A stretch of 64,000 nucleotides of DNA from Elusimicrobiota bacterium (GCA_012517285.1 JAAYVG010000005.1:6304-70303), one strand, 5' to 3'; counted from the first letter of the stretch, positions 7,475 through 62,961 are shown. Notes: generated from the letters alone by a model not told the origin. Translations and numbers: made by a program.

Positions 7475-7641
7475 CAGAGGACAGAGATCAGAAGTCAAAG
7501 CCTGCCTGCGCCGAAGCCGCTTCGGCAGGCAGGCTTGCCTGCCGAAGATATATCAGCAAAGTGGTGAATAACCACAGTCGTTTTGCTGATAAGTTTATCG
7601 CAGGCAGGTAGGAACTGATCACTGACCACTGACAACTAATT
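7475..7641. repeat. Intergenic repeat mosaic: CAGA-heptamers, two CYTGCCTG...CAGGCAGG palindromes, ACTGA-heptamers
   Basis: CAGAGGA CAGAGAT CAGAAGT CAAAG (7475-7500), 33-bp palindrome 7501-7533, 75-bp nested hairpin 7534-7608, ACTGATC ACTGACC ACTGACA ACTAATT (7614-7641). Confidence 0.9.
7501..7533. repeat. 33-bp bulged palindrome, copy 1
   Basis: CCTGCCT-GC-GCCGAAG-CCG-CTTCGGC-AGGCAGG. Confidence 0.95.
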
Positions 7642-7653
7642 AAAGGAGATAAT

Positions 7654-9099
7654 ATGGCAAATGAAAACAATATAAGAAGAGAGATATATTCAAACAGATC
7701 GTTTGAAGAGATAAGAATAGCTGTTATGGAAAACTCAAAGCTTTCCGAGCTTTTCTGGGAGAGGAACAGCAGTGCGAGTCTTGTTGGTAATATTTATAAG
7801 GGTGTGGTGGAAAATGTTTTACCCGGGATATCAAGTGCTTTTATAAATATTGGTTTTGAAAAAAACGCCTATATATACATATCTGATGTTATAGGTGATG
7901 CCCGTGGTGGTATAGATAAGGTCTTAAAAAAGGATCAGGAGGTTATGGTCCAGATAATAAAGGACGCAATAAGCACAAAGGGTATGAAGGTCACCATGGA
8001 TATAACACTTCCTGGCAGATATATAGTTCTAACCCCATTTCAAGAGCATGTGGGAGTGTCAAAAAATATAGATAATGAAGAGGAGAGAAACAGACTCTCT
8101 AAGATAATAAATGAGATAGTGGATACTTCTAAAAAATATGGTTGCGTTGTAAGAACTGAGGCTGAGGGGATAAGTGAGGAGGAGATTAAAAAAGAGTATA
8201 AGTATCTGATAAGATTGTGGGATAGCATATTGAAAAAGTATGATAACAATCGTGCTCCTTATTTGCTCTACAAGGATATAGACCTAACCCTTCAGGTTGC
8301 AAGGGATCTTCTCTCTGAGGATATATCCATATACATGCTTGATAACAGAGAGGATTATTATAACGTACTGGATTTTGTTTCAAAGATATCACCTGAGTTT
8401 AAGGATAAAATAAAATACTATGATGCAAAGACGCCGATATTCAAGGCCTTTAACATAGAGCAGGAGATAGATGAGCTCAGAAGAATCAAGGTTGAGCTTC
8501 CGAGTGGTGGTAGCATAATAATACAGGAGGCTGAGTCGCTGTGTGCAATAGATGTGAACACAGGTAGATACACCGGTAATAAATCTCAGGAGGAAACTGT
8601 CACACAGATAAACATTGAGGCGGCCTATGAGATAGCAAGACAGCTAAAGCTGAGAAACATCGGTGGTATCATTGTCATTGATTTCATAGATATGAGAAAG
8701 GCATTCAACAGGCACAAGGTTATGAAAGCCCTTGAGGATGCTGTTAGAAATGATAGAGCAAAGATAAAAATACTTCCTATAACAAGGTTGGGATTGATAG
8801 AGATGACAAGGGAGAGAAGAAGGGAAAGCACATTTAATATGATAACTGAGGAGTGCCCTCAGTGTCAGGGCTCTGGCAAGGTGTTATCAATAGATAGCAT
8901 AAGGATAAAGATTCAGAATGATATCTTAAATCTTACGATGGGAAGGCCCGGTGGAAATTTAAGGGTTGTAGTTCATCCACTTGTTATGGAGAGCTTGAAG
9001 GAAAAACAGAATATGGTTGAGAAAAATGTTCATAGAAGCATTAAAATTGTTTCTGATCCACAGCTTGTATGGGAGGATTACAGGATCATAATAGAATAG
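7654..9099 (+). CDS. rng: Ribonuclease E/G family (RNase G-sized)
   Basis: GNIYKGVV S1 domain, AIDVNTG, LRNIGGIIVIDFIDM and CPQCQGSG zinc-link motifs; 481 aa with no RNase E scaffold tail. Confidence 0.95.
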   Translation: MANENNIRREIYSNRSFEEIRIAVMENSKLSELFWERNSSASLVGNIYKGVVENVLPGISSAFINIGFEKNAYIYISDVIGDARGGIDKVLKKDQEVMVQIIKDAISTKGMKVTMDITLPGRYIVLTPFQEHVGVSKNIDNEEERNRLSKIINEIVDTSKKYGCVVRTEAEGISEEEIKKEYKYLIRLWDSILKKYDNNRAPYLLYKDIDLTLQVARDLLSEDISIYMLDNREDYYNVLDFVSKISPEFKDKIKYYDAKTPIFKAFNIEQEIDELRRIKVELPSGGSIIIQEAESLCAIDVNTGRYTGNKSQEETVTQINIEAAYEIARQLKLRNIGGIIVIDFIDMRKAFNRHKVMKALEDAVRNDRAKIKILPITRLGLIEMTRERRRESTFNMITEECPQCQGSGKVLSIDSIRIKIQNDILNLTMGRPGGNLRVVVHPLVMESLKEKQNMVEKNVHRSIKIVSDPQLVWEDYRIIIE

Positions 9100-9100
9100 T

Positions 9101-9375
9101 TAGGGTTCACTGAAAAAGTCTAACGAAAGATAATTTTTCCGATGAATAATTGTCTTGATGGGAGTAGATTATTGTTTTAAAACTGCACGATTTTTAAGGT
9201 AATGTTGCAAAAACCTTGCACTTTTTTATCTTTCTTTTGGCAATAAAGACAACGCTTTTCTACTACGGCTTCGTCAGAACTCGCTTACCCCGATATATCG
9301 GGGCTCGCTCGTTTTTTCGCCTCATAACGAAAATCATTGCTTTATTGCTCAAATAGACTTTTTCAGTGAACCCTA
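9101..9375. mobile_element. MITE-like non-autonomous element, 275 bp
   Basis: Perfect 22-bp terminal inverted repeats TAGGGTTCACTGAAAAAGTCTA (9101-9122 and 9354-9375) with TA at both outer ends; no ORF; internal inverted repeats. Confidence 0.85.
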
Positions 9376-9423
9376 CTCAATTTTTTTGAGAATGCTAATT
9401 TGATAAAATGATAGTATATAAGA

Positions 9424-9517
9424 CAGTGATCAGCGAAACAGTGAACAGTGGTCAGTGATCAGTGAATAAGGTGTTTTCCTTTACTGCCCACTATCCACTA
9501 CGCACTGATCACTGATT
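9424..9517. repeat. Inverted heptamer-array element (CAGTGAT arm, spacer, ACTGATC arm)
   Basis: Six CAGTGAn-type units, spacer GAATAAGGTGTTTTCCTTT, then five ACTnnnn units; near-identical core at 60627-60689. Confidence 0.88.
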
Positions 9518-9531
9518 AGCTGGAGATTAAT

Positions 9532-11052
9532 ATGAAGATTAAAAAGATTTTGATTCTATTATTAACTGCGGTATTCTGTACAACGAGCATTAATGCTGCA
9601 GTAAACAAATACAAGGTTTTTAAAAAAGCTAAGTATGTAGGAACGATGACATCCTATGAGGTGGATGATAATATATATTTTGATCTCAATGATATAACAA
9701 AACATCTCAATGCTAAAAAAAACATATACTCTGTTTCAAAAAAGATAGTCCTTTCCATTGGAAACAAAAAATTAAACATCTCAAGAGATATGGTTGATTT
9801 TGATGGTATTTCAACAGCAAATATTCCATCAGCGTTCATTTTGAGAGCTTCTAAATATTTCTTAAACAGTAATATCTTTTTATCTCCAACCTTCGCAAAG
9901 ATATTTGAGCTTAAGCTTGATCTCGATGATAAAAGCAGAACAATAAAAATATATGACGATATCAATATAACATCTGTAAAAAATTTTTCATACACGGAAA
10001 AAACAAGAATAGTTGTCTATATGACAAAAAAGCTTGATTATAAATTAGATACGGTTGGCAAAACACTTGTTTTGACAGTTTTCGATGGTTCTTATATTGT
10101 GCAGAATGATATCATTGATATAAATGATGGGAATGTAGAAAACATTAAAATGACTCAGGATCCAAATCTCTTCAAGCTTGTCATAGAGATGGGAGATAAT
10201 TTTGATGGATATGAGTCCTCTACACTTAAAGACCCTGATAGAATTGTCATAGATATAAAATCAAAACCTGCTACTGTGGAAAACAGAATAAGCGGTGTTA
10301 TATCACCATCAATCCCTGATGTGAGCGGATCTTCGTCATCATTTGTGCTTCCCGATAAACTTAAACCAAATGGTGATGAAAAAACTGTTGTGGTTATAGA
10401 CGCAGGTCATGGTGGAAAGGATCCGGGTGGTCGTGCTGTGTCAGGCAAAAAGGAAAAGCAGATAAATCTTGAGATAGCTAAAAAGCTTTATGATATATTA
10501 AAAAAGGATGATAAGTTTGAAGTCATCTTAACAAGAAGTAGCGATTACTTTATACCCCTTTATGAAAGAAGCAAGATAGCAAATGATGCCAAATGCGACC
10601 TTTTTATCTCCATTCATGCAAACGCTCACAAGGATAAAAATGTTAATGGCTATGAAATATACTTTCTTTCTGAGAAGGCAAGCGACCCTTGGGCAAACGA
10701 GGTTGCTGATTATGAGAACGCATCAATAAACTATGAAGAGGGCACTTTTGATTATGGTGGTGCTGCTATGGTGCTTCACTCTATGGCAAGAAATGAGTAT
10801 ATAAACGAGGGTTCAAAGTTAGCAGCCTATGTCTCAAGATATATGTCAAAGGACACGCCGTTCAACAATAATGGAATAAAGCAGGCAGCATTCTATGTTC
10901 TTAGAGGCACATATGCCCCAGGGATACTTGTTGAGGTTGGCTTTATGACCAATAAGAAGGATAAGAAGAATCTTGATAATCCTTCTGTTCAAGAAAAGGT
11001 TGCACGTTCAATTTATAAGGGAATTTTAGATTATGAAGACCAGAACAAATAA
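9532..11052 (+). CDS. N-acetylmuramoyl-L-alanine amidase (Amidase_3, AMIN-like N-terminal domains, signal peptide)
   Basis: VVIDAGHGGKDPG, EK.INL, FISIHANA and ILVEVGF zinc-amidase motifs; DPDRIVID AMIN motif. Confidence 0.95.
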   Translation: MKIKKILILLLTAVFCTTSINAAVNKYKVFKKAKYVGTMTSYEVDDNIYFDLNDITKHLNAKKNIYSVSKKIVLSIGNKKLNISRDMVDFDGISTANIPSAFILRASKYFLNSNIFLSPTFAKIFELKLDLDDKSRTIKIYDDINITSVKNFSYTEKTRIVVYMTKKLDYKLDTVGKTLVLTVFDGSYIVQNDIIDINDGNVENIKMTQDPNLFKLVIEMGDNFDGYESSTLKDPDRIVIDIKSKPATVENRISGVISPSIPDVSGSSSSFVLPDKLKPNGDEKTVVVIDAGHGGKDPGGRAVSGKKEKQINLEIAKKLYDILKKDDKFEVILTRSSDYFIPLYERSKIANDAKCDLFISIHANAHKDKNVNGYEIYFLSEKASDPWANEVADYENASINYEEGTFDYGGAAMVLHSMARNEYINEGSKLAAYVSRYMSKDTPFNNNGIKQAAFYVLRGTYAPGILVEVGFMTNKKDKKNLDNPSVQEKVARSIYKGILDYEDQNK

Positions 11053-11839
11053 CCCTCCAATAGGAATCTTTGACTCTGGGCTTGGAGGGCTTACAGTTTA
11101 CAGAGAGTTGAGGAAAATCCTACCATCAGAAAATATTATATATTTTGGTGATACTATGAGGGTTCCATATGGCAATAAATCGACAGAAAGCATAAAAATA
11201 TTTTCATCAGAGATTTCACAGTTTTTGCTATCGCTCGGTGTTAAGATGATAGTGGTGGCATGTAATACCGTATCATCAACATCACTTGACATAATAGAGA
11301 GCATAACAAAGCTTCCTGTTGTCGGAGTTATTGAGCCGGGTGTTAAGCTTGCTATTAAAAAGAGCAAAAATAAAAAAATAATAGTTATCGGCACAAGAGC
11401 AACTGTAAACAGCCACTCATATAAAAACAAGATAGAAGAAAATGATCCAACCATTGATGTCATAGAAAAGGCCTGTCCGCTTTTTGTTCCGATTGTTGAA
11501 GAAAACTTTGTAAATCACAAAGCATCGCTTTTGATTGCAGACGAGTATCTCGGTGAGTTTAAAAGCAAGGATTATGATACCATAATCCTTGGCTGTACCC
11601 ATTATCCACTTATTAAAAACTTGATAAAAAAGGTCTTGAGTGATATAAATATTATTGATTCGTCAAAGGCCTGTGCTGGTTATGTCAAAGACATACTCAC
11701 AAACAATAATATGCTTTCTAAAAATGATGGAGATGGCTGGACTGATTTCTATGTCAGTGATAAGCCACAGAACTTCATGGAGTTAGCATATAGATTGGCT
11801 GGTGTTAAAATATGTAAAATAAATATTAAAAGGTTTTAA
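11033..11839 (+). CDS. murI: Glutamate racemase
   Basis: IGIFDSGLGGLTV, VACNT and LGCTHYP motifs. Confidence 0.98.
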   Translation: MKTRTNNPPIGIFDSGLGGLTVYRELRKILPSENIIYFGDTMRVPYGNKSTESIKIFSSEISQFLLSLGVKMIVVACNTVSSTSLDIIESITKLPVVGVIEPGVKLAIKKSKNKKIIVIGTRATVNSHSYKNKIEENDPTIDVIEKACPLFVPIVEENFVNHKASLLIADEYLGEFKSKDYDTIILGCTHYPLIKNLIKKVLSDINIIDSSKACAGYVKDILTNNNMLSKNDGDGWTDFYVSDKPQNFMELAYRLAGVKICKINIKRF

Positions 11840-11850
11840 ACGGAGGTTAT

Positions 11851-12288
11851 ATGAAATCAAATCTTAAACTGTTGATTATGTTTTCAATGAGCTTTTTGCT
11901 TATCTCAGCATCGCCAAAGAAATCAAAAAGCGTAAAATCTGAAACTAAAAAGGCAGATACAACGGTTGTTTCTGTTTCATCAACTACTACAAACTCTGCT
12001 AATACATCTGATACCAGCTCTGGCTCATCATCCGATGATTTAAGTGGTGTTATGGTGGACAACCTTTCAGACGAAGATGTTTATGATACTACATCAGACA
12101 AACAATATGAGGCTGAAAATACTGAGGGAATACCATATTCTTATGGCGTCATAAAGGGAACAATAAACGTTGATGGCAAGAGCGTAGTCGTTATGGAGCA
12201 GGAGGATGGTGGCATAAATCTCATACAGATATACATTGATAAAGCTTCTGTTAAGTGGAAGCTGATAGGCCAGATCAAGCGAAGTTAA
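11851..12288 (+). CDS. Hypothetical secreted protein with Ser/Thr-rich linker
   Basis: Signal-peptide-like N-terminus, GGAGG RBS, co-directional within the operon. Confidence 0.7.
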   Translation: MKSNLKLLIMFSMSFLLISASPKKSKSVKSETKKADTTVVSVSSTTTNSANTSDTSSGSSSDDLSGVMVDNLSDEDVYDTTSDKQYEAENTEGIPYSYGVIKGTINVDGKSVVVMEQEDGGINLIQIYIDKASVKWKLIGQIKRS

Positions 12289-12307
12289 AAGGTGATGAGG
12301 AGGATAT

Positions 12308-12496
12308 ATGAAGAGAAAGGATTTGATAAGATATCTAAACAAGGAGGGATGCATCCTTGTCAGGGAGGGCGGAAAATACTCAGTTTTTCTCAATCCAAAG
12401 ACAAACAAGGAAGTCCCTGTCACAAGACACAATGAAATAGCAGACTTTGCTGCAAAAAAAATATTCAAGGAGCTTGGAATAAATCCACCTGAATGA
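12308..12496 (+). CDS. hicA: HicA-family (type II toxin-like) protein, orphan, catalytic His replaced by Tyr
   Basis: MKRKDLIRYL..EGC.LVREGGK-Y-S...NP..NKEVPVTRH.EI matches the HicA pattern; strong GAGGAGG RBS. Confidence 0.85.
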   Translation: MKRKDLIRYLNKEGCILVREGGKYSVFLNPKTNKEVPVTRHNEIADFAAKKIFKELGINPPE

Positions 12497-12900
12497 GAAA
12501 GTCATTTCTGATTTTTTTATTATCACTATCATCGTGTCATACGATGAACATAGATGTTATAAAGACAGGTCGTTATTTTTCACCCAAAAAATACACCGAT
12601 ATAGACCTTTATCCGAATAGCAAAAGTGTTAAGCGACAGTTTGGTGGTATTGCAATATTTAAAAGCGATAGATTTGATTGCAGCGTTGAAAAACAAGAAT
12701 CCCTTCTTTTAAAGGCTAAGAAGATGGCAGCTGATATCGGTGCCAATGGAATGATATACTACTTTGACTATGGTGAAAAAGACCCATATGCCAAACCTGA
12801 GGAAAAGTGTTTTTTATCTGCTGTTGCTATTAAATACCTTGATGATGAGGTTGAAGAGTTTTTAAAGAACAACCAGCCATCTGATACAGTCTCTCAGTGA
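12493..12900 (+). CDS. Hypothetical lipoprotein
   Basis: Lipobox LSSC; KAKKMAADIGANGMI resembles YbjQ-like folds. Confidence 0.7.
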   Translation: MRKSFLIFLLSLSSCHTMNIDVIKTGRYFSPKKYTDIDLYPNSKSVKRQFGGIAIFKSDRFDCSVEKQESLLLKAKKMAADIGANGMIYYFDYGEKDPYAKPEEKCFLSAVAIKYLDDEVEEFLKNNQPSDTVSQ

Positions 12901-12939
12901 TCAGAATTTTTGTCTTCTCCCGCCAACAATTTTTTATTC

Positions 12940-12969: not shown

Positions 12970-13020
12970 TTTAATATAGCCTCTAACGGGGCTAATATAA
13001 CCTTAATAAGGAGGGTTCAG

Positions 13021-14259
13021 ATGAAAAGACTTATAGCAGTATTAGCGGCAGTGACAGTTATGTCATCAATTGCCAGTGCCGAGTTGCTTAAAAACTTCAA
13101 GTATGACGGTTCTTTAGAAGTAAACGCCTATAATGTTGACAATGCCATAGACTTTGACAGCGACACAGATGATAAAAATGGCAAGGTTGACACAAGGCTT
13201 ATATTGAACATGGGTTTTGACCTAAACGATGATGCAAACGCTGTTGTTACCCTTACAAAGAATGACAGACAGTGGGGAACTGGTTCCCAGAATGGAGACA
13301 ACATTCAGACCAATGTTTGGGTCGATCAGGCTTATTTAAACCTCAAGGGAGTTATGGGTCTTGATCACAGGGTTGGAAGGCAGTTCTATGGAAATCCTGG
13401 GGATCTTGTCATTTATTACGGACCAAAAATGTGGCCTTATCAGACAAACATTGGTGCGATAAGTGCCATAGATGCATGGGTTGGAAGCTACAAATATAAT
13501 GACTGGGAGTTTACAGGATTGATGGGAAAACAGTCTGATATTGGTGCTACTATGGGTATAAACTTGAGTGGTATTGATGTTAAAACAAAGCTTGCTGGCT
13601 TTGACCTTAATGCATATTATTACTATCAATCTAACAATATAGTTGATTCTCATTTAGGTTTGATCGGTTTAAGAGCAGGCTATGACATGAGCAAGTTTGT
13701 TAATGGCTTAAGCCTCTCTGGCGAGTATGATGCAAACAATGGCAGCAATAATACAACCAATAAGGATTATAAGGGTTCTGCATACAAGTTAAATGCTTAT
13801 TACTCTATGAGCTTAGCCGGAAAGTTAGGCCTTAAAGCAGAGTATGCTTATCTCTCAGGTCAGGATACTTCATCTGATAATAAGGTGTTTACGCCAATCA
13901 ATGGGGATTATAGACCTGGTATAATAGCAAATGGCTATGGTACAAGCGGTGTTTACCTTGGGGCAGTCGGAACAGGCAATAAAGTTTTATCATTAGGTGC
14001 AAACTGGACACCATCAGCAATTGAGAAGTTAAACATTGCAGTTGACTATGTTAACCTTAAGGTTGCAGAAGAAAATGCAGGTATGAATGATACCATTGGA
14101 AATGAGTTTGACTTAACATTGACATGGACGCATTCAGACAAGCTCTCATTAAAGGGCTACTATGCATTCTTATCACCTGATGAGGACAATGCAAAAGCAA
14201 TACTTGGAAAGGATGATGCTGAAACAATGTTAGGCGCAGCGTTTGTTGTAAAGTTCTAA
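13021..14259 (+). CDS. Outer-membrane beta-barrel protein (porin / alginate-export-like)
   Basis: Signal peptide ending ASA, amphipathic beta strands, RVGRQ and GNEFDL motifs, C-terminal Phe; own promoter and terminator. Confidence 0.85.
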   Translation: MKRLIAVLAAVTVMSSIASAELLKNFKYDGSLEVNAYNVDNAIDFDSDTDDKNGKVDTRLILNMGFDLNDDANAVVTLTKNDRQWGTGSQNGDNIQTNVWVDQAYLNLKGVMGLDHRVGRQFYGNPGDLVIYYGPKMWPYQTNIGAISAIDAWVGSYKYNDWEFTGLMGKQSDIGATMGINLSGIDVKTKLAGFDLNAYYYYQSNNIVDSHLGLIGLRAGYDMSKFVNGLSLSGEYDANNGSNNTTNKDYKGSAYKLNAYYSMSLAGKLGLKAEYAYLSGQDTSSDNKVFTPINGDYRPGIIANGYGTSGVYLGAVGTGNKVLSLGANWTPSAIEKLNIAVDYVNLKVAEENAGMNDTIGNEFDLTLTWTHSDKLSLKGYYAFLSPDEDNAKAILGKDDAETMLGAAFVVKF

Positions 14260-14287
14260 TTAAAAAATTAGATAATAAAAACACTAC

Positions 14288-14319
14288 GAACCCCGCACCC
14301 TGTGCGGGGTTCTTTTTTT
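14288..14319 (+). terminator. Rho-independent terminator
   Basis: GAACCCCGCAC-cct-GTGCGGGGTTC perfect 11-bp stem followed by T7. Confidence 0.93.
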
Positions 14320-14334
14320 CATCGAATTACTCAT

Positions 14335-14431
14335 CAACCGCGTAGGTTGGGTAAACTGAAAAAAACTAAATTAGTGCTTGAAATTCAATCTTTTATCTGC
14401 TAAAATATAAAAAACCCAACCTACGCGGTTG
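14335..14431. repeat. Inverted pair of REP-like hairpins upstream of RAYT
   Basis: CAACCGCGTAGGTTGGGT (14335-14352) and its exact reverse complement ACCCAACCTACGCGGTTG (14414-14431); each contains the hairpin CAACC-N5-GGTTG. Confidence 0.85.
14378..14406 (+). promoter_or_regulatory. Putative sigma70 promoter of the RAYT gene
   Basis: TTGAAA (14378-14383), 17-bp spacer, TAAAAT (14401-14406) preceded by TGn extended -10. Confidence 0.6.
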
Positions 14432-14439
14432 GAAGGATT

Positions 14440-15075
14440 ATGATTTATCATATAATGAATAAAAGTATTGAGGGTTACAAAATATTTATAGATGATGCTG
14501 ATTCTAAAAGATTTATTAAAGCAATGATTTATTATTCTTATCAAAGATCCATAAAAATACCATTTAAAGAGTATTTAAAAATTATAAGCGAAAAAGAAGG
14601 GAAAAGTGGTATTAATAAGATAATTAGTTTTGCTCCTTTAATTAATATAATCTGTTATGTTGTTATGCCAAACCATTTTCATATATTATTGGATGATTTT
14701 AAAAATAATTATCTATCAAAATATTGCAACAACCTCTTAGATAGCTATACTAGATATTTTAATGTTAAATATCAGAGAAAAGGACCGCTATGGCAGTCGA
14801 GGTTTAAGAGGATCCCTGTAGAAAAAGATCAGTATTTTATACACCTAACAAGATATATACATCTTAATCCTGTGACAGCATTTCTTGTTGATTCCCCAAA
14901 TATTTGGGAGTTTTCCTCATACAACGAATATCTGAGTGGGAAGGAAAACATATGTAATTATTTGAATTATTTTCCTGATAAATATAACTTTAAAAAGAGT
15001 TATGCAGAGTTTGTTAATGATAGAATTGATTATCAGAGAAAGTTGGCTGAAATTAAGCATATGATCTTTGATTGA
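14440..15075 (+). CDS. REP-associated tyrosine transposase (RAYT; Y1/HUH, IS200-like superfamily)
   Basis: YHI at the N-terminus, HUH motif MPNHFHIL, LWQSRF, catalytic-Tyr motif YIHLNPV, W.FSSY. Confidence 0.92.
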   Translation: MIYHIMNKSIEGYKIFIDDADSKRFIKAMIYYSYQRSIKIPFKEYLKIISEKEGKSGINKIISFAPLINIICYVVMPNHFHILLDDFKNNYLSKYCNNLLDSYTRYFNVKYQRKGPLWQSRFKRIPVEKDQYFIHLTRYIHLNPVTAFLVDSPNIWEFSSYNEYLSGKENICNYLNYFPDKYNFKKSYAEFVNDRIDYQRKLAEIKHMIFD

Positions 15076-15396: not shown

Positions 15397-15494
15397 TTTT
15401 CAGGCTCATTTATGTTAGAAACAACATAAATTTCAGGCTCATCTCCTGCCTACGCCGAAGCGGCTTCGGCAGGCAGGCCTGTGACGAAACAGCT
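15397..15494. repeat. Direct subterminal repeats (TTTCAGGCTCAT...GAAACA) of the IS remnant end
   Basis: TTTCAGGCTCAT at 15398-15409 and 15431-15442, each followed by GAAACA; the second is interrupted by the 33-bp palindrome. Confidence 0.65.
15445..15477. repeat. 33-bp bulged palindrome, copy 2
   Basis: CCTGCCT-AC-GCCGAAG-CGG-CTTCGGC-AGGCAGG. Confidence 0.95.
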
Positions 15495-15611
15495 TCGCCA
15501 TGCTGGTTCTATTGGATAATTCTAACTATTGATTTATGATTTGATAAAATTGTATAATATTAATGATTGGGGATTATGTAAATAAAGCCCCATAGTAAAA
15601 AGAGAGGGAAA

Positions 15612-24858: not shown

Positions 24859-25131
24859 GGGTCGCTGAAAAACTGCAGGTTAAGGTTAAGATTAAGGTTA
24901 AGAGAAAACCACAAATCTCCACCGAACCCGAACCTGAAGTAACCTACGCGGTTACTTTTGGTTCTTCCCAAATAACTAGACAACCAAACAACTAAATAAC
25001 CAATTTGTTCTTCCTAAACAACTAAATAACCAGATAACCAATTTATCTGTCTTCATCTGATGTCTTATCCGTTTACATCCTGATGAATCTGTTTACATCC
25101 TGATGATTAAATAACTAATTTGTCAGCCAGT
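24858..25131. repeat. Intergenic repeat mosaic (TIR-like end, hexamers, REP-like hairpin, octamers, ~20-mers)
   Basis: AGGGTCGCTGAAAAACT (24858-24874), GGTTAA/GATTAA x4 (24878-24902), AAGTAACC-TACGC-GGTTACTT (24937-24957), AAATAACT-type octamers, ATCYGTYTWCATCnnGATG units. Confidence 0.9.
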
Positions 25132-34418: not shown

Positions 34419-35273
34419 ATGAATTTTTTAATCTTTTTTATTTTTAATTCTTTTAGTCTTTATTCTCAAAATATTTTTATGGTAACGCCATCTACCTACA
34501 GCCTTATTTTCAGAAATTCTGTGGCAGATGTCAATGTGAAGGATAAATTTACTGCTATCTCAAAGCCACCTTTGCATGAGAATGGCTTTACGTTTGATGA
34601 TTTAGTGACTATAAAGAAAGGTAGCAATGTCAATGAGAATCAGATAAAGGATATAGAGGATGAGGATGAGAATATTGATGTTGATATTATGGAGGCCGTT
34701 GAGCCTGCTCCATTAAATCTTGGTGGAAATGGTAATCTTACAATAATAAGAAGAGACACTGGTGAGAAGGTTGATATAAACTATAGGGACAGAGACGGAA
34801 GTTATGATGAGGATGAGATAGCAAAGGCTTCGTATATAATGAGGTGTTCCTTTGATGATGCTCAGAAGAAAGTCCCAGTCAGGTTGTTGGAACTTTTGGA
34901 TGCCATTGAGGATAAATTTGGTAAAAAACCATTGATACTTTTGAGTGGATATAGAACAATCCCTTTTAATAGTATCACACCTGGCGCGGCAAAGAAAAGT
35001 ATGCATCTTTTGGGATGGGCTGCTGATATAAGGATAAATGGTGTCTCATCAAAGAGGATCAGAGACTATGTAAGGAAGTTAAAGATTGGTGGAGTTGGAT
35101 ATTATCCATCAATGGGTTTTGTCCATGTTGATATTGGTAGGGTAAGATACTGGTATAAGTATCAGTATTCTAAAAAAAAGAGTTATGCTAAAAAAAAGGT
35201 CAGAAATAAAAAAACAGCGGTTTCAAAGAGCAAGTCTTTGCCCAAAAAAATAAAGATATCGGAGCTTAAATAG
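34419..35273 (+). CDS. YcbK/MepK (DUF882, peptidase M15) family protein
   Basis: LSGYR, S.H..G.AAD and GGVGYYP..GFVHVDIG motifs; Lys-rich C-terminal tail. Confidence 0.9.
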   Translation: MNFLIFFIFNSFSLYSQNIFMVTPSTYSLIFRNSVADVNVKDKFTAISKPPLHENGFTFDDLVTIKKGSNVNENQIKDIEDEDENIDVDIMEAVEPAPLNLGGNGNLTIIRRDTGEKVDINYRDRDGSYDEDEIAKASYIMRCSFDDAQKKVPVRLLELLDAIEDKFGKKPLILLSGYRTIPFNSITPGAAKKSMHLLGWAADIRINGVSSKRIRDYVRKLKIGGVGYYPSMGFVHVDIGRVRYWYKYQYSKKKSYAKKKVRNKKTAVSKSKSLPKKIKISELK

Positions 35274-35565
35274 TTATTTGGTTATTTAATCATCAAGATG
35301 AAGACAGATTCATCGAGATGTAAACGGATAAGACATCTGATGAAGACAGATAAATTAGTTATTTAATCATCAGGATGTAAACGGATAAGACATCAGATGA
35401 AGACAGATAAATTGGTTATCTGGTTATTTAGTTGTTTAGTTGTCTGGTTATTTAATGGAAACAGAGGTCAGAAGTCAGATGACAGAAAACAGAAGGCAGA
35501 AGACAGAGCAGGCATGGCGAAGCGGCTTCGGCGTAGGCAGGGACAGAAATCAAAAATCAGAAATA
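35272..35565. repeat. Intergenic repeat mosaic (octamers, five CATCnnGATG ~20-mers, CAGA-heptamers, 33-bp palindrome copy 3)
   Basis: 57-bp-period internal duplication; 35367-35439 is the exact reverse complement of 25014-25086; degenerate palindrome at 35509-35541. Confidence 0.92.
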
Positions 35566-55272: not shown

Positions 55273-55276
55273 CTTA

Positions 55277-56671: not shown

Positions 56672-56687
56672 AGGATCTCCTTAATAT

Positions 56688-58220: not shown

Positions 58221-58308
58221 CTTAGCTTTACTTTTGCTTTAAATATTATATAATTTTTTTAAGAGTAAATTATAAATTTATAGGCCTTATGGCAAAGGGG
58301 AGTTTCTT

Positions 58309-60402
58309 ATGAACAGAATCCAATCTCATCCGGTCTTGGATGTTCCTCAAAAAAAGGAAATAAAATTTTATTTTGATGATAAAGAGCTTGTAGGTTATGA
58401 GGATGAAATGATATCATCAGCACTTTTTGCAAATGGTATAAAAATATTTAGCTATCATAGAAAGGACAACTCACCTCAGGGAATCTTCTGTGCTAATGGA
58501 CAGTGCTCTCAGTGCAGCGTTGTGGCGGATAACATGGTGGTTAAGGCATGTATAACAAAGATAAAAGAGGGTATGAGGATTCAAACTTTGAAGGGTCTTA
58601 GAAAGCTCAATATTGAAAAAGATATTCATTTTAATTATTCAAAAATAGAAGAGATTGAAACCGATGTCCTAATCATTGGTGGTGGGCCGAGCGGTCTTAG
58701 AGCAGCCTCAGAGCTTGGAAGGTTTGCACTTAATGTGATACTTATTGACGATAAGGATAAATTAGGTGGCAAGCTTGTGCTTCAAACTCATAAATTTTTT
58801 GGTTCTGTTGAAGACTGTTTTGCTGGGACTCGTGGTATAGATATAGCTGATAAGCTTTCATCAGATTTGGCTGAATATCCATTCGTTAAATACTGGACAG
58901 GTTCAACAGCTTTTGGAGTGTTTGCTGATAAAAAAATAGGTATTGTCAGGGATGACACCTGCTGTCTTATAAAGCCAAAGGCTGTGATATTTGCAACAGG
59001 GGCAAGGGAAAAAACTCTTATTTTTGAAGGCAATACGCTGCCGGGTATATATGGTGCTGGTGCATTTCAAACACTGCTTAACAGAGATCTTGTAAAGCCA
59101 TCATCCAATCTATTTGTCGTTGGTGGTGGAAATGTTGGTCTGATAGCATCATATCATGCTATACAGGCTGGTGTTAATGTCGTTGGATTGTGTGAGATAG
59201 CCAATAAATGTGGTGGATATAAGGTTCATGAGGATAAAATAAGAAGACTCGGTGTCCCAATATTTAATAATCATACTGTATTAAAAGCTGAGGGCTCAGA
59301 TATGATTGAAAGGGTTATTATATCGGAGGTTGATAAAAATTTCAAACCTATAAAGGGTAGTGAAAAGGTTTTTGAGGTTGACACACTGCTCGTTGCAGCA
59401 GGACTAAATCCTGTGAATGAGCTTTATGAACAGGCTTTAAATTGTCAGATTCCATCATTTATATGCGGTGATGCCGAGGAAATTGCAGAAGCTTCAGCTG
59501 CAATGTTCAGTGGACGAATTGCTGCTCATAAGGTTTTAAAACATCTTGGATTTGTAACGAGCGATGTTCCGAAGTTCTGGTTCGATAAATTAGAGGTTTT
59601 AAAATCAAGGCCAGGCAAAACATATGAAAATATTAAAAATTCTGTTACAAATATTGTTTATCCATCCATTCATTGTAATCAGGAGATTCCGTGCAATCCA
59701 TGTGTGACGGTATGCCCTAAAAAATCAATAAAACTCAGTGGTGATAGCATAGTAAATATTCCAAAGTTCAGCGGTGATTGTATAGGCTGTTTTAAATGTC
59801 TTTTGATATGCCCGGGGTTAGCAATAACAATTGTTGATAAAAGGAAAGACATTAATAATCCAACAGTATGGATCCCTTTTGAGGTGGATGCTGGAATAAA
59901 AAAAGGTGATAAGGTCAAGGCTGTGGATATAAATGGGAATTTTTTAACCGAGGCTGAGGTGGTTGATGTTAGATTTTTTAATGCTGAAAAGACGGCAGCT
60001 ATAGCTATCAAAATTGATGCTGCTATGGCTGATGATGTTGCCTCAATAAAAATAATAAATCCAGAAACATTTAAAAAAACTGATGCCGATATATCACTTA
60101 TGAGTGATGATGTTATAATATGTCGGTGTGAGAGGGTTAAGCTTGGGGATATAAGGAAATGGATAAGAAGGGGAGTAAGAGATCTCAATCAACTCAAGGC
60201 CCTTACAAGGCTAGGTATGGGAGCATGTGGATCCAAAACTTGTTCAAGCCTTATTATGAGCATAATGAGGTCTGAGGGTATAAATCCACAGGATGTGACA
60301 GAGCTAACAAAAAGGCCATTTTTTGTTGAGATAAATTTTGGTTCTTTTGCTGGCTTAAACAAAAAAGAAGAGGAAACTAAGAATAAATTCAGTGACTTCT
60401 GA
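58309..60402 (+). CDS. Fused 2Fe-2S / FAD-NAD oxidoreductase / 2x4Fe-4S / BFD-like 2Fe-2S protein (sarcosine oxidase alpha or proline dehydrogenase-like)
   Basis: GIFCANGQCSQC...C, GGGPSG, ATGARE, GGGNVG, CNPCVTVCP, CIGCFKCLLICP and CRCE...GMGACGSKTC motifs. Confidence 0.88.
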   Translation: MNRIQSHPVLDVPQKKEIKFYFDDKELVGYEDEMISSALFANGIKIFSYHRKDNSPQGIFCANGQCSQCSVVADNMVVKACITKIKEGMRIQTLKGLRKLNIEKDIHFNYSKIEEIETDVLIIGGGPSGLRAASELGRFALNVILIDDKDKLGGKLVLQTHKFFGSVEDCFAGTRGIDIADKLSSDLAEYPFVKYWTGSTAFGVFADKKIGIVRDDTCCLIKPKAVIFATGAREKTLIFEGNTLPGIYGAGAFQTLLNRDLVKPSSNLFVVGGGNVGLIASYHAIQAGVNVVGLCEIANKCGGYKVHEDKIRRLGVPIFNNHTVLKAEGSDMIERVIISEVDKNFKPIKGSEKVFEVDTLLVAAGLNPVNELYEQALNCQIPSFICGDAEEIAEASAAMFSGRIAAHKVLKHLGFVTSDVPKFWFDKLEVLKSRPGKTYENIKNSVTNIVYPSIHCNQEIPCNPCVTVCPKKSIKLSGDSIVNIPKFSGDCIGCFKCLLICPGLAITIVDKRKDINNPTVWIPFEVDAGIKKGDKVKAVDINGNFLTEAEVVDVRFFNAEKTAAIAIKIDAAMADDVASIKIINPETFKKTDADISLMSDDVIICRCERVKLGDIRKWIRRGVRDLNQLKALTRLGMGACGSKTCSSLIMSIMRSEGINPQDVTELTKRPFFVEINFGSFAGLNKKEEETKNKFSDF

Positions 60403-60404
60403 AA

Positions 60405-60689
60405 TAGTGGTCAGTGCCTGCCTGCCGAAGCCGCTTCGGCGCAGGCAGGGACAGTGGTCAGTGGACAGCAAAACAAAAGCAGTGATCAGAAAAAACAAAC
60501 AGCAATAGTGGACAGAAGACAGAACTCAGAAAACAGAAGTCAGATGTCAGAAAACAGAACTTGCCTGCCGAAGCCGCTTCGGCGCAGGCAGGGACGGAGG
60601 ACAGAAAAGGCAAAAGCGATAATGGTCAGCGAATAAGGTGATTCCTTTTACTGACAACTATCCACAAATCACTGATCACTAATCACTGA
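60405..60689. repeat. Intergenic heptamer mosaic with 33-bp palindrome copies 4 and 5
   Basis: CAGTGG and CAGA heptamers; palindromes at 60417-60449 and 60560-60592; spacer GAATAAGGTGATTCCTTTT and inverted ACTGATC arm as at 9460-9517. Confidence 0.92.
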
Positions 60690-60725
60690 AATTTTGTTTA
60701 TAAAATTTGTTCTGGAGGAGATATT

Positions 60726-61871
60726 ATGGAAAAGTTTGATATCATAATAGCTGGTGCTGGTAGTATAGGTGTTCCGCTCTCACTTTTTCTGTCAAAGGAA
60801 AAATACAGAGTTTGTGTTATAGAAAAAAACCATTCACCCGGTCAAGGTCAGAATAAAGCAGCAATAGGAGGGGTACGAGCAACACACTCCGATTCATCAA
60901 AGATAAAAACCTGTCTTAAGAGCATAGAGATATTCTCATCATGGAAAGAAACCTATGGTGATGATATAGGCTGGCAGAAAGGGGGATATCTTTTTCCTGT
61001 TTACAGTGAGAGTGATAAGAAGGTTTTACTTGAATTGTTAAAGGTTCAGAAGAACTACGGTTTAAACATCGAATGGATAGAAAAGGATGATATCCTTGAG
61101 CTTGTTGATGGGATAGATGACAGAGGACTTTTAGGTGGTACATATTCACCTGATGATGGGTCTGCTTCATCGATCCTTTCGTCAAACGCATTTTATTTTA
61201 AATCACTTGAATATGGAACAACATTTAAGTTTAATGAAAATATAAATGAGATATCAAAAAAAGAAAACTTTGTGATAAGGACTAACAAGGGTGAGTATGA
61301 GTCAGAGTATTTTATAAATGCTGCTGGATCTCATGCAAAAGCAGTATCGCTTATGTTGGGTGTTGATGTTCCTGTTAAACCTGACTGTCATATGGCAGCA
61401 ATAACAGAGCCACTTGAGAGATTTATGAAGCCTATGGTTGTTGATATCAGAAAGGGGGAAGCTTCATCTAACTGTTATTTCTATCAGAACTTTGAGGGTC
61501 AGATAATATTTTGTCTAACCCCTTCACCACAGATTTGGGGGTATGACAGGAGGGCATCATCAGAATTTTTAAATGAGTCTGCCAAAAGAGTTTTAAGTGT
61601 TGTCCCATCAATGAAAAATGTAAGGGTTAGAAGGATGTGGAGAGGACTCTATCCTATGACTCCTGATGGTTTCCCTGTGGTGGATTTTGATGCCGGTGGA
61701 ATTAAAAATTATATACTTGCAGTTGGTATGTGCGGGCAGGGATTTATGATGGGACCTGGAACAGGATGGGTTATAACGGAGATACTTTCAGGAAGAAAAA
61801 AGAAGGACGATGATATGGTGATTAACTTTAAGCTTGAAAGGAGCTACTCTGGTCAGGAGAAGCTTAAATAA
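60726..61871 (+). CDS. DAO-family FAD-dependent oxidoreductase (sarcosine oxidase beta or proline dehydrogenase beta-like)
   Basis: IAGAGSIG, INAAG, W.GLYPMTPDGFP and GMCGQGFMMGP motifs. Confidence 0.9.
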   Translation: MEKFDIIIAGAGSIGVPLSLFLSKEKYRVCVIEKNHSPGQGQNKAAIGGVRATHSDSSKIKTCLKSIEIFSSWKETYGDDIGWQKGGYLFPVYSESDKKVLLELLKVQKNYGLNIEWIEKDDILELVDGIDDRGLLGGTYSPDDGSASSILSSNAFYFKSLEYGTTFKFNENINEISKKENFVIRTNKGEYESEYFINAAGSHAKAVSLMLGVDVPVKPDCHMAAITEPLERFMKPMVVDIRKGEASSNCYFYQNFEGQIIFCLTPSPQIWGYDRRASSEFLNESAKRVLSVVPSMKNVRVRRMWRGLYPMTPDGFPVVDFDAGGIKNYILAVGMCGQGFMMGPGTGWVITEILSGRKKKDDDMVINFKLERSYSGQEKLK

Positions 61872-61920
61872 ATTTATCTTTACAATATTAGTTATAATAT
61901 TTTTTTATGGAGGAACCTAT

Positions 61921-62679
61921 ATGAGAACACCGATGATAGCTGGGAACTGGAAGATGCACTTAACAACGTTTGAGGCTATGGAGTTAGCTGCTGCTATAAA
62001 AAATGGTATTAGCACTGACTTGAATCGAGAAGTTTTGATTGCCCCTAGTTTTACCAATCTTCAGGTTGTAAAAAAAGCGATATCAGGCAGCAAAATACTT
62101 CTTTCAGCGCAGAATATGTGCTGGGAGGAGAAAGGGGCATTTACTGGTGAGGTATCACCACTACAACTTAAGGACATTGGTTGTGATTATGTAATAATAG
62201 GACATTCTGAAAGAAGAAAGATATTTTATGAAACGGATGATATGCTCAATAAGAAGGTAAAATCAGCTTTAAAAAATGGTTTAAAAATAATCTTTTGTAT
62301 AGGTGAAACAATTGAAGAAAGAGAAAATCAGCAGACATACAATGTATTGAAAACACAGGTTAATAATGGGCTAAAAGATATAACTGATTTTGAGATGTCA
62401 AATCTTGTTATAGCATATGAGCCAGTCTGGGCCATAGGAACAGGAAGAACCGCAACCCCAGAACAGGCAGAGGATGCACATATATTTATAAGAAGAGAGA
62501 TTGAAAGAATATTTAATAAACATATATCAGAAAGTATAAGGATACTTTATGGTGGTTCTGTTAAGGCAGAAAATATTGATGATTTAATGGCCTGTAAAAA
62601 CATAGATGGAGCTCTTGTTGGTGGTGAAAGCCTTAAAGCTGAGAAGTTTTTAAGAGTGATAAATTATATGACTAAATAG
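61921..62679 (+). CDS. tpiA: Triosephosphate isomerase
   Basis: IAGNWKM, GHSERR, AYEPVWAIGTG and YGGSV motifs; true start is the ATG at 61921 behind GGAGG. Confidence 0.98.
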   Translation: MRTPMIAGNWKMHLTTFEAMELAAAIKNGISTDLNREVLIAPSFTNLQVVKKAISGSKILLSAQNMCWEEKGAFTGEVSPLQLKDIGCDYVIIGHSERRKIFYETDDMLNKKVKSALKNGLKIIFCIGETIEERENQQTYNVLKTQVNNGLKDITDFEMSNLVIAYEPVWAIGTGRTATPEQAEDAHIFIRREIERIFNKHISESIRILYGGSVKAENIDDLMACKNIDGALVGGESLKAEKFLRVINYMTK

Positions 62680-62961
62680 GGGTCAGTGAAAAATCCTAAC
62701 GGTGGAGATTTAGGACAATAAAAAAAGGTTAAGATTAAGATTGAGGTTAAGGAGAAAAGACGAAACAGAGGTCAGAAGACAGATGTCAGAAAGCAGAACC
62801 TTTATACAACTTCGTAAGTTGGATAGGTTATAAACGCTTTTATTCAATTGTTCATCTTGATTTTTATCGTTTACACATCCTGACTTAATCTGTCTTCATC
62901 TTGATTGAATCTGTTTACATCTCGATGATTAAACAACCAGATAACTTTTTTAGTGCCTCTA
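62677..62961. repeat. Intergenic repeat mosaic bounded by degenerate MITE-type ends
   Basis: Left end TAGGGGTCAGTGAAAAAT, hexamers 62727-62752, CAGA heptamers 62766-62800, CAACTTCGTAAGTTGG (62807-62822), ~20-mers, right end ACTTTTTTAGTGCCTCTA. Confidence 0.85.

Follow-up and report, generated by a model that had tools for sequence, protein, structure and literature searches.

Bacterial MITEs and modular repeats such as Nezha, Chunjie, pneumococcal BOX and Correia possess TIRs and a target duplication, are shorter than 300 bp and contain no ORF; MITEs insert between the genes of operons without disturbing signals, and BOX elements are built in the modular form A-B(n)-C. The BIMEs of enterobacteria are alternating REP types with defined linkers, and the STRRs of cyanobacteria are intergenic direct repeats of heptamers. 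The small dispersed repeats (SDRs) of Nostoc reportedly measure 21-27 nt and are said to be precisely present or absent between close genomes.

According to papers that cite Elhai et al. (2008, Genome Res 18:1484), very small repeats, the SDRs, are nested within heptamer arrays and MITEs in Nostoc punctiforme and its relatives, and one citing paper states that SDRs were not found outside Nostocaceae among HIP1-rich cyanobacteria. REP and REPIN sequences with their RAYT genes (the REPtron) are treated by Bertels and Rainey (2011, PMC3116915), Di Nocera et al. (2013, PMC3733652) and Quentin et al. (2018, 10.1101/279083), and another account places TAACTGA heptamer repeats in Beggiatoaceae, Cyanobacteria and Bacteroidetes (MacGregor 2015, PMC4679880).

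The window analysed here is the whole stretch of 64,000 nucleotides, and its six repeat-bearing loci (R1 to R6, Table 1) are intergenic, as had been claimed from the sequence alone, each lying between ORFs or between an ORF and a tRNA-Asn gene. With a probability of roughly 0.7, their mosaics arose as non-autonomous repeats of five or more kinds, each obeying rules of its own, inserted in layers, followed by strand slippage in the tandem parts. Five kinds of element are resolved, namely REP/REPIN sequences with cognate RAYT genes, MITE-A, the composite MITE-B, a heptamer-armed palindromic unit, and P, a 33-nt bulged hairpin. The term "undescribed system", used in the sequence-only reading, was too strong, since very small repeats nested in MITEs and in heptamer arrays have been reported from Nostoc and heptamer arrays are described outside cyanobacteria. 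Landscapes of this kind are already known from the small dispersed repeats of Nostoc, from REPINs and from heptamer repeats; the host is new.

Abundance and order of the modules

All the modules listed in the sequence-only reading (hexamers, heptamers, octamers, 20-mers, MITE-type ends, hairpin and palindrome) were found at their positions in the six loci. The genome-wide counts proposed there placed every module far above Markov controls. In the 1.96-Mb genome of this uncultured bacterium, the spacer modules recur tens to hundreds of times, nearly all in non-coding DNA. On both strands, there are 172 matches to CAGANNN x3 (161 non-coding), 50 to CAGTGNN x3 (46), 141 to the octamer x2 (137), 113 to the CATCnnGATG 20-mer (112), 108 to GTAACC-N5-GGTTAC (54 loci; all 108 non-coding), 114 to the P palindrome core (114) and 13 to the hexamer x3 (12), where the split between coding and non-coding rests on a crude ORF mask. 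Three order-3 Markov genomes yielded 0-1 matches for each module, and five Markov replicates of the non-coding sequence yielded none. Sequence with at least five genome hits makes up 72,264 of the 208,032 non-coding bases (~35%), and such bases occur in 387 of the 864 non-coding segments.

The modules had been described as shuffled into different orders, and this part of the claim did not hold: the modules follow one fixed order, and where orientations differ, whole elements have been inverted. Every one of the other tokens (78/78, in 21 regions) is placed to the inside of the hexamer arrays, the 20-mer/octamer pairs display a single relative orientation (55/55), and an alignment anchored on 33 hexamer arrays revealed a common linker and a common order. 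MITE-B is a composite with ends related to those of MITE-A, carrying tandem arrays in a fixed internal order of hexamers, conserved linker, heptamer unit, octamers, 20-mers and octamers. R3 and R6 are whole copies of MITE-B and R4 is part of one; no target duplication was established for MITE-B. As in the known MITEs and BOX elements, TIRs, a target duplication, a length below 300 bp, the lack of an ORF, insertion between operon genes that leaves their signals intact and a modular A-B(n)-C build are found among the elements here. The differences are that MITE-B holds four tandem-repeat families in fixed order and receives REP, P and the heptamer unit as insertions, and that no autonomous partner was found here.

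Table 1. Repeat elements and associated features of the window (positions counted from its first nucleotide).
Feature	Position	Strand	Description
R1, heptamers	7475-7495	+	CAGAnnn array
R1, P	7501-7533	-	33-nt bulged palindrome
R1, long form of P	7534-7608	+	75 nt; termini CTTGCCTGCCGAAG...CGCAGGCAGG as in P, around an internal hairpin
R1, reverse heptamers	7614-7637	-	..CACTG type, adjoining RBS of RNase G gene
MITE-A	9103-9373		Complete, 271 bp, overlooked in the sequence-only reading; TIRs GGGTTCACTGAAAAA / TTTTTCAGTGAACCC; target duplication decayed
R2	9423-9514		Convergent CAGTGnn arrays flanking core AATAAGGTGTTTTCCTTTACTG
REP doublet	14336-14430		Two REP cores in inverted orientation (AACCGCGTAGGTT ... 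AACCTACGCGGTT), immediately upstream of RAYT gene
RAYT-like gene	14440-15075	+	Y1 transposase, 211 aa, PF01797
P doublet	15445-15506		P (15445-15477) and abutting degenerate inverted P, head-to-head, ~370 nt downstream of RAYT gene
R3, MITE-B	24859-25131	+	Whole composite; MITE-type (TIR-like) end at 24859, 4 hexamers GGTTAA/GATTAA 24878-24901, REP 24934-24960 (AACC-N5-GGTT hairpin 24941-24953), octamers 24970-25039, reverse 20-mers 25045-25105, degenerate right end
R4	35272-35562	-	20-mer/octamer arm in opposite orientation 35272-35453, CAGA heptamers 35462-35508, P variant 35509-35541, heptamer remnants
R5	60405-60689	+	P (60417-60449) within CAGTG heptamers, CAGA array 60513-60559, second P 60560-60592, CAGTG-type core, reverse heptamers 60663-60689
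R6, MITE-B	62680-62961	+	Whole composite; MITE-type (TIR-like) end at 62680, CCTAACGGTGGAGATTTAGG hairpin, 4 hexamers GGTTAA/GATTAA 62727-62750, CAGA heptamers 62766-62800, REP-like hairpin 62807-62821, reverse 20-mers, octamers 62931-62946, degenerate right TIR

Presence and absence of elements in relatives and strains

In all five relatives examined, the genes stand in the same order as here (upstream ORF, RNase G, amidase), and the orthologous spacers, where empty sites had been predicted, are short and empty there. They measure ~4-51 bp, against 193 and 432 bp here, except for the RNase G-amidase spacer of relative G017 (116 bp; this spacer only), which holds an inverted heptamer array of its own. 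The mosaics are not fixed, and the presence/absence variation presupposed by the sequence-only reading was observed: a conspecific strain (97.9% identity) differs cleanly in a MITE, a heptamer unit and the 33 nt of P. In that strain, R1 contains a second 75-nt P variant in place of P, and R2 is a different and larger mosaic composed of P, a CAGA unit and 20-mers. The nesting of several non-autonomous elements in one another is thus supported by both the empty sites in relatives and the whole-element indels in the conspecific strain.

Insertion of MITE-A was observed in filled/empty pairs between the strains (C44:32467, with TAAATA, and C43:23434, with TATCTA). The 12 complete copies have the structure of a MITE (271-277 bp, ends GGGTTCACTGAAAAA, no ORF), and the target duplication measures 6 bp in seven of them, 7 bp in three and 2 bp in one, and is lacking in one. 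MITE-A inserts with a 6-bp A/T-rich duplication, such as a DDE transposase would make. An autonomous partner with MITE ends was not found, either in searches with PF13358, PF01609, PF01548 and PF07282 or by end pairing up to 3.5 kb; the transposase survey of the genome detected no IS630-type DDE_3 and no TnpB, one IS110 gene, and one DDE_Tnp_1 ORF without MITE ends. As the genome is 97% complete, the partner may be unassembled.

The heptamer arrays form a palindromic unit, (CAGAnnn)n - ATAAGGAATTTCCTTA - (nnnTCTG)m, gained and lost as one block. A heptamer block of 154 nt, located exactly between a stop codon and an RBS, is present here and absent in the other strain, a type of difference in which, as for P, a precise deletion is indistinguishable from an insertion. 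Between the strains, octamer indels of 8 and 16 nt and heptamer indels of 7, 14, 21 and 35 nt were found; strand slippage would change the copy number of the tandem parts after insertion of an element. Tandem intergenic heptamers with a CAG/CTG core occur here at many loci, as in STRRs and the TAACTGA repeats, and they are likewise often beside start codons, patchy among relatives and variable in 7-nt steps between close strains, with shorter spacers in close relatives that have no arrays. In contrast, the arrays here flank a conserved core and together with it make up a discrete palindromic unit, which is gained or missing as a whole. Of the array pairs, 66 are convergent and one is divergent, with a modal gap equal to the 16-nt core. 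No such unit is described in the portion of the TAACTGA account considered here (PMC4679880).

The modules might instead be selected cis-acting signals that act as terminators, stabilise mRNA or offer arrays of sites to a nucleoid or post-transcriptional protein, with slippage alone behind their variation. In favour of this, heptamers often abut an RBS (7614-7637, 9501-9514 and 60663-60689), as proposed for the TAACTGA repeats (PMC4679880), P is a stable hairpin (-14 kcal/mol), solo MITE ends provide GGAG and ATG before tgt and before a MlaD-like gene, and G017 has its own array in the RNase G-amidase spacer. However, neither congener yielded the modules, nor did most of the relatives searched, 5/5 relatives have short orthologous spacers, whole elements with target duplications are present or absent at 97.9% identity, and the R2 mosaics differ between two strains. 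Moreover, the heptamer arms do not covary, being complementary at 34.7% of variable positions as compared with 42.1% in shuffled controls. We therefore consider selected signals unlikely and prefer layered insertion.

REP hairpins, RAYT genes and P

The genome contains three RAYT genes (mutual identity 40-56%), and only two TIGR02436 genes. The product of the window copy matches PF01797 with 30.5 bits (cut-off 23), which places it in the Y1/HUH, IS200-like superfamily; its score against NCBIfam REP_Tyr_transpos (NF047646), 58.5 bits, is below the cut-off of 80, and it is therefore a diverged RAYT-like protein and not a curated-threshold member. RAYT genes and REP hairpins are linked. The C40 paralogue has inverted REP doublets on both sides, whereas the single doublet at the window copy is degenerate and lies upstream; the same REP core lies upstream of RAYT in congener G001, and a related core beside RAYT in G008. 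Among the strict REP cores, 32/50 sit in pairs, and 16/16 adjacent pairs are inverted. RAYT-type Y1 transposases would mobilise the REP hairpins (GTAACC-TACGC-GGTTAC), most of which form inverted doublets (REPINs); that these enzymes catalyse the step is presumed by analogy with the family. The RAYT at 14440 had been suggested as one candidate motor; this stands as regards its link to the AACC-N5-GGTT hairpin, but is not supported for the other modules. In the congeners, RAYT genes occur without P, 20-mers or CAG arrays.

As in REPtrons, short extragenic multi-copy palindromes, mostly in inverted doublets, flank diverged single-copy Y1 transposase genes, the REP core has a G-T-A-G motif, and intragenic copies in replication genes are reported for REPs (PMC3733652). 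The differences are that REP is one minor module of the mosaics, that GTAG is found within the loop and the 3' stem rather than at a free end, and that the window RAYT scores below the family cut-off. BIMEs are likewise intergenic mosaics including REP hairpins; here, however, the strict REP core occurs in only one of the six loci, the bulk consists of tandem arrays and MITE parts, and the order is that of MITE-B.

A classical REP/BIME origin, in which every module is a REP derivative spread by RAYT genes, would fit the hairpin family near each of the three genes (R, with 50 cores; a third hairpin, at 7 loci; and the P doublet downstream of the window copy). It is also consistent with the distribution of CAG arrays, which occur in 10 of the 16 relatives that have a RAYT match and in 0/14 without one, although kin are not independent, and with a P copy inside dnaE, since REPs are known inside replication genes (PMC3733652). 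On the other hand, R6 adds only a REP-like hairpin to the single locus with REP, MITE-A carries TIRs as well as a 6-bp duplication of a sort not produced by Y1 enzymes, the tandem 6-, 7-, 8- and 20-mers are not hairpins, and RAYT matches without CAG arrays occur in G001, G002, G005, G016 and G013. We regard such an origin as quite improbable, and layered insertion of several kinds of element as the better reading.

Within heptamers, P would be inserted in phase at CAGNN^GA and leave no target duplication, the pattern expected of single-strand Y1/HUH transposition. Its presence or absence between strains comprises exactly 33 nt at CAGAG^GA (C19:35406), and in-phase heptamers flank it on both sides in 24 of 53 orientable loci and on one side in 12 more. 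Of the 43 P loci in the other strain, 23 are shared, 7 lack collinear flanks, and for 13 the corresponding place here is without P, about five of these places being unreliable as they lie at contig ends of this genome. The 75-nt form has five copies of this size in the genome and folds with -19.7 kcal/mol (z -7.4). The RAYT at 14440, with the P doublet downstream, is a tentative candidate driver of P, at somewhat less than even odds, and the link between them is weak. The congeners have RAYT genes and no P. Five genomes from other phyla that contain P gave 17 Y1 matches; at the 10 of these loci examined, no P lies within ~1.5 kb, and the Y1 proteins of these genomes are only 23-39% identical to those of this genome. 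The chance of P lying within ~540 bp of a gene is estimated at ~15% (57 loci in 211 kb).

P resembles the SDRs in being nested in tandem heptamers, MITEs and other elements, and in its precise presence or absence between close genomes. It differs in its length, 33 nt against 21-27 nt for SDRs, and in that its central 27 nt recur exactly in nine other MAGs, which are assigned to several other phyla; the flanks displayed for these matches include the outer ends of the P stem, and in one of the MAGs the match lies in frame inside dnaE. A Nostocaceae host is not indicated, as no match to Photo_RC (reaction-centre gene) was found in the genome; none of 300 genomes of the host phylum exceeds 4.6 Mb.

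Assembly of the repeats

Chimeric joins or collapsed reads of the MAG, which the sequence-only reading had named as a danger, are scarcely credible and already largely refuted: the genome is in 52 contigs, some ending within repeats, and MITE-A, P and R3 are contig breakpoints in all runs, but a contig of run X4 covers 7000-9129 including R1 with 0 gaps, pieces of run X2 match parts of R3 at 100%, loci on contigs as long as 363 kb from another metagenome show, at 97.9% identity, the same elements in the same contexts, and virtually all module counts come from non-coding DNA. The stretch is present in independent assemblies of three studies. As the X4 contig spans R1 gap-free, the R1 array is stable at 0.8% divergence. 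In the strain of this run, positions 14320-15039 are missing, so that it is without one RAYT copy.

Repeat modules and their order

The six repeat-bearing intergenic stretches of the window, R1 to R6, are each bounded by two ORFs or by an ORF and tRNA-Asn, and each module listed by the sequence-only reading was found at them. The modules were counted on both strands of the source genome G000 (1,962,120 bp, 52 contigs, 34% G+C, completeness 97.3%), in which the window spans C25:6304-70303; matches in non-coding DNA, as defined by a crude ORF mask, are given in brackets. The counts were 172 (161) for CAGANNN x3, 50 (46) for CAGTGNN x3, 13 (12) for hexamer x3, 141 (137) for octamer x2, 113 (112) for the 20-mer CATCNNGATG[AT]A[AG]AC[AG]GAT, 108 (108), or 54 loci, for the REP hairpin GTAACC-N5-GGTTAC, and 114 (114), or 57 loci, for the palindrome core GAAGC[CG]GCTTC of the 33-nt bulged hairpin P. 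Order-3 Markov genomes (n = 3) gave 0-1 matches per pattern, and Markov copies of the non-coding DNA (n = 5) gave none. By this count the modules are dispersed across the genome far beyond chance and are not confined to the window; the observation of repeat mosaics is real. Bases with at least five genome matches made up 72,264 of the 208,032 non-coding bases under the crude ORF mask, and 387 of 864 non-coding segments held such repeats, which amounts to about a third of the non-coding DNA in a genome of only 2 Mb. In practice these repeats break assemblies, and contig ends fall inside them. Repeat arrays also precede the only two TIGR02436 (four-helix-bundle) genes of G000, four hexamer arrays at one and CAGTG heptamers at the other.

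Tokenised into modules, the genome yielded 423 repeat regions, 114 of them with at least three tokens. In the 21 regions that combine hexamer arrays with other modules, all 78 of these non-hexamer tokens are on a single side of the hexamers; neighbouring 20-mers and octamers show a single relative orientation in 55 of 55 pairs; and heptamer arrays are arranged head-on in 66 cases vs. one back-to-back, the modal gap between head-on arrays being a 16-nt core, ATAAGGAATTTCCTTA, in either orientation. This fixed order contradicts the earlier description of the modules as shuffled. When the 33 hexamer arrays were used as anchors, a composite MITE carrying tandem arrays, MITE-B, emerged. It consists of an end such as GGGGTCACTGAAAAA, to which CCTAACGGTGGAGATTTAGGACAAT may or may not be added; four hexamers; the linker GAAGAAAACGACAAATCCCCATCAAAA; CAGTG and/or CAGA heptamers followed by the core and reversed heptamers; TTTCCATT; octamers, reversed 20-mers and again octamers; and TTTTTAGTGCCTCC, a degenerate inverted end. 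R3 and R6 are whole copies in identical orientation, R4 consists of the oppositely oriented 20-mer/octamer arm joined to a heptamer/P block, and R1, R2 and R5 are heptamer units carrying P elements. P is nested within heptamers within MITE-B, and MITE-A, a separate MITE, within an octamer array.

The heptamer arrays are the arms of a discrete unit that is present or absent as one block, a finding that seems new. The arms are unequal, and their complementarity at variable positions was 128/369 (34.7%), compared with 42.1% (sd 2.7) after shuffling of partners; as this does not exceed the control, the idea that the unit is a selected long hairpin was dropped. The core motif CAGAN{2,3}ATARGGA, searched in 30 relatives, was too loose (controls 0-15 per genome), and its enrichment over the control in the relatives G017 (27 vs. 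10), G007 (21 vs. 3) and G022 (14 vs. 5) is only a hint that the heptamer core is common to relatives.

Empty sites in relatives and turnover between strains

Among 301 genomes of the phylum, G000 alone has the palindrome core of P, and the 20-mer was present in 1 of 31 genomes. CAG arrays are absent from both congeners and patchy elsewhere, with 335 matches in G017, 51 in G015, 42 in G012, 37 in G022, and others. All 5 relatives examined share the arrangement upstream ORF - RNase G - amidase, and their short, empty orthologous spacers measure about 4-51 bp vs. 193 and 432 bp in G000. The exception is G017, from another genus of the family, whose RNase G-amidase spacer of 116 bp contains an inverted heptamer array of its own, similar in its core, AAATAGGGAGAATACCTTATAA (its upstream spacer is not part of the comparison); the spacer of three other relatives has none. 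Two further loci proved unsuitable as empty-site tests: the gene order around the TIM orthologues of 19 relatives is not kept, and module absence there says little, and the PAP2-MFS pair at R3 is not syntenic.

A metagenome scan for P yielded 51 stretches, and the 35 that are low in G+C (254,601 bp) represent a conspecific strain with 97.9% identity to G000 over 226,530 aligned bases. The 44 collinear chains (226,960 columns) contain 138 indels of at least 5 nt, 109 of them non-coding. At one site MITE-A is present in the other strain, inside an octamer array and with the duplication TAAATA, and the G000 site is empty; a second MITE-A presence/absence difference carries the duplication TATCTA. 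A 154-nt heptamer unit with P is present in G000 and absent from the other strain; it fits precisely between a TAA stop and the ribosome-binding site that follows, flanked by TTTAA at either end. An exact 33-nt P at CAGAG^GA is present in the other strain and absent from G000. Indels within the arrays follow 7-, 8- and about 21-nt steps. In the other strain R2 is a different, larger mosaic (P, CAGA unit, 20-mers), and R1 has a second 75-nt variant at the position of the 33-nt P of G000. Among the 43 P loci of that strain, 23 are shared, 7 are unplaceable and 13 lack P at the corresponding position in G000, about five of these 13 lying at G000 contig ends and being unreliable. One of its stretches, L102, contains six P copies with spacings alternating between 363 and 75 nt, that is, a ~438-bp tandem repeat; since its position corresponds to where contigs C51 and C19 end, it probably corresponds to an assembly gap in G000. 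Slippage in unit steps, strain turnover and distinct elements with distinct junction rules were observed, and together with the nesting they bear out the earlier proposal of nested non-autonomous elements.

Runs from three further studies contain contigs of the stretch, and one contig of run X4 crosses R1 gap-free, so the R1 array is stable at the distance of that strain; all runs consist of contigs, and their depth and uncovered parts carry no evidential weight. Joints in the runs at MITE-A, R3 and P were discounted as empty sites, as their sides are short (18-47 nt) and probably stem from other copies. Near-identical strains in at least three independent studies are available in addition to the conspecific strain, which offers clean insertion/empty pairs for three element kinds. 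Repeat-bearing contigs are also present in the RNA run X8 (contigs only, no measure of transcription).

REP hairpins, MITEs and their putative movers

G000 contains three RAYT-like genes (PF01797), a Y1 transposase type linked to REP, with a mutual identity of 40-56%; the NCBIfam RAYT model gave 58.5 bits vs. a cut-off of 80. The RAYT gene on contig C40 has inverted doublets of CCAAAAGTAACC-GCGTA-GGTTACTTTTGG on both flanks, the window copy has a degenerate inverted REP pair upstream, and the third gene has a different hairpin beside it, with 7 loci in G000. Adjacent REP pairs are inverted in 16 of 16 cases, and 32 of the 50 strict cores are in pairs. An identical REP core is located before the RAYT gene of G001, a congener, and a related core on both sides of that of G008. 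The REPs would be moved by RAYT, and this part of the system matches a textbook REPtron (PMC3116915, PMC3733652 and 10.1101/279083). The X4 strain, where 21 other letters bridge the joint, lacks the RAYT gene and the REP pair upstream of it and retains the last 36 nt of the ORF; this 3' remnant suggests a deletion. Three diverged RAYT genes and one natural strain without one of them provide material for tests. A porin-like gene in the window has a weak DESULF_POR1 match, and a contig of run X8 over this region has a depth of 189, far above its neighbours (contigs only, no expression measure).

The sequence-only reading had overlooked a complete 271-bp MITE-A in the window. The genome holds 12 complete copies of 271-277 bp, flanked by a duplication, typically TAAATA, which measures 6 bp in 7 of the 12 and 7 bp in 3; one copy has only 2 bp and one has none. 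MITE-A and MITE-B would move by a putative DDE transposase, and searches of G000 found no autonomous partner for the MITE ends. Two ORFs that follow solo MITE ends were considered as transposases and rejected, since by reading of their sequences they resemble tgt and an MlaD-like protein. These solo ends, CACTGAAAAAGTCTAAC(G/A)GTGGAG..ATAAATG, stand directly before the starts of both genes and may supply a ribosome-binding site. The single IS110-family transposase gene has octamer-like repeats ~100 nt upstream and MITE-A downstream at the contig end.

Coordinates of the features discussed (G000, source genome with contigs C; L, single stretches from other genomes or metagenomes)
Feature	Location	Strand or remark
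R1	window 7475	start
Complete MITE-A	window 9103-9373	
Porin-like gene	window 13021-14259	
Depth-189 contig of run X8	window 12987-14294	
Degenerate REP pair	window 14336-14430	
RAYT gene	window 14440-15075	
Segment missing in X4	window 14320-15039	14319 joined to 15040
R3	window 24859-25131	
R6	window 62680-62961	
TIGR02436 genes	G000:C43:40154-40668; G000:C12:2-461	
IS110-family gene	G000:C2:23719-24793	
MITE-A, empty in G000	G000:C44:32467	
Second MITE-A difference	G000:C43:23434	
Solo MITE ends	L130:283-325; G000:C47 near 91329	C47: minus
G017 heptamer array	L065:2937-3053	
Tandem P repeat, conspecific strain	L102:1784-3049	
P in dnaE	L032:211-237	ORF L032:3-4187, minus
P in IS66-family ORF	L109:4221-4247	ORF 2930-5176, minus

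The hairpin P within and beyond the lineage

P, CCTGCCTGCCGAAGCCGCTTCGGCGCAGGCAGG, is a hairpin with a 2-nt bulge that folds as DNA at -14 kcal/mol (z -3.5). Elements delimited by its termini are 33 nt long in 47 copies and 75 nt in 5, and a few measure 89-136 nt. Of 53 orientable loci, 24 are flanked on either side by co-oriented heptamers in phase after removal of the 33 nt (CAGNN^GA) and 12 further loci have them on one side; 4 loci carry P reversed at the same site. P would move as a single-stranded hairpin via a Y1/HUH-type reaction, which would explain why the target is fixed, why orientation is biased and why no duplication arises. The window RAYT is a candidate mover, as it is followed ~370 nt downstream by a P doublet in head-to-head arrangement; we give this reading a probability of only about 40%, as such proximity would arise by chance ~15% of the time and congeners own RAYT genes but no P. 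RAYT as the motor of the whole system was not upheld.

Outside the lineage, the exact 27-nt P core was found in 21 stretches of 9 MAG records with other labels: Lentisphaerae (12 stretches), Kiritimatiellae (3 stretches, 2 records), and Victivallales, Verrucomicrobiota, Omnitrophota, PVC-group bacterium, Cytophagales and Saccharibacteria (one each). These stretches have a G+C content of 47-64%, and P often caps a larger palindrome that differs from it; five such genomes hold 24, 4, 1, 2 and 5 loci of a 13-nt core, and 16 more GC-rich metagenome contigs have one P apiece. A 33-nt element can be traced across phyla. In GC-rich contigs, extended reading frames that overlap P were dismissed as mostly chance, and in a Pfam search of four P-spanning ORFs P was inside the matched domain only in dnaE and an IS66-family transposase ORF; the ORF of L078 matched only far downstream of P and that of L028 had no match. 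In dnaE of an Omnitrophota-labelled, GC-rich MAG, P is in frame and, relative to E. coli Pol III alpha, adds ~10-11 residues in the helix-hairpin-helix domain; in the alignment to that protein a 10-residue insertion is seen at this position. The same gene also contains an intein with a LAGLIDADG domain. In the IS66 ORF, P lies in the DUF6444 region, and the same context was seen in another record (L073).

P was found within ~1.5 kb of Y1 loci in 0 of the 10 loci examined (of 17 matches) in five P-holding genomes, whose Y1 proteins are 23-39% identical to those of G000; the search for P in plasmids or phages gave no match, and viral contigs 0 stretches. A further reading, which we consider unlikely, is that P is a self-sufficient substrate that crosses phyla with no co-transferred cognate transposase, moved by a widespread host single-strand function or an unrecognised enzyme, and landing at hairpin tips, in heptamer arrays and, given its length of 11 codons, within the reading frame of essential genes, dnaE for example. 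If so, the heptamer arrays would be the arms of a second such minimal unit, and the patchy heptamer repeats of Cyanobacteria, Beggiatoaceae, Bacteroidetes and the present lineage would reflect horizontal movement of minimal units.

According to the abstract of PMC4679880, no mechanism is evident for the spread of heptamer repeats, and the present genome is a compact system for their multiplication and spread, and that of other very small repeats, between distant bacteria. That paper already reports heptamer arrays outside cyanobacteria, along with strains that differ by 7-nt indels and close relatives whose empty spacers are shorter; citing papers credit Nostoc with nested very small repeats (Elhai 2008), and REPs within replication genes are reported in PMC3733652. 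With the REPtron, the kind of system is therefore known, and the label "undescribed" falls with the shuffling and the RAYT drive, whereas the nested elements stand. What seems new is the host, a 2-Mb non-phototroph (no photosynthetic reaction-centre gene in the G000 genome) of digester, sludge and groundwater metagenomes by run labels, as well as the fixed composite architecture, the identity of a 33-nt element across phyla and the copy of it in frame in dnaE. In the main texts searched, P and heptamer strings gave two irrelevant hits and no relevant paper, and similar units may already be in MacGregor's supplementary tables or Elhai's data.

In a Lentisphaerae-labelled MAG (L023, L027), P is nested in a ~130-nt repeat of several hairpins, some copies of which carry a further hairpin whose ends resemble those of P (CCTGTCTGC...GCAGGCAGG), so a P-like family may exist in that genome too.
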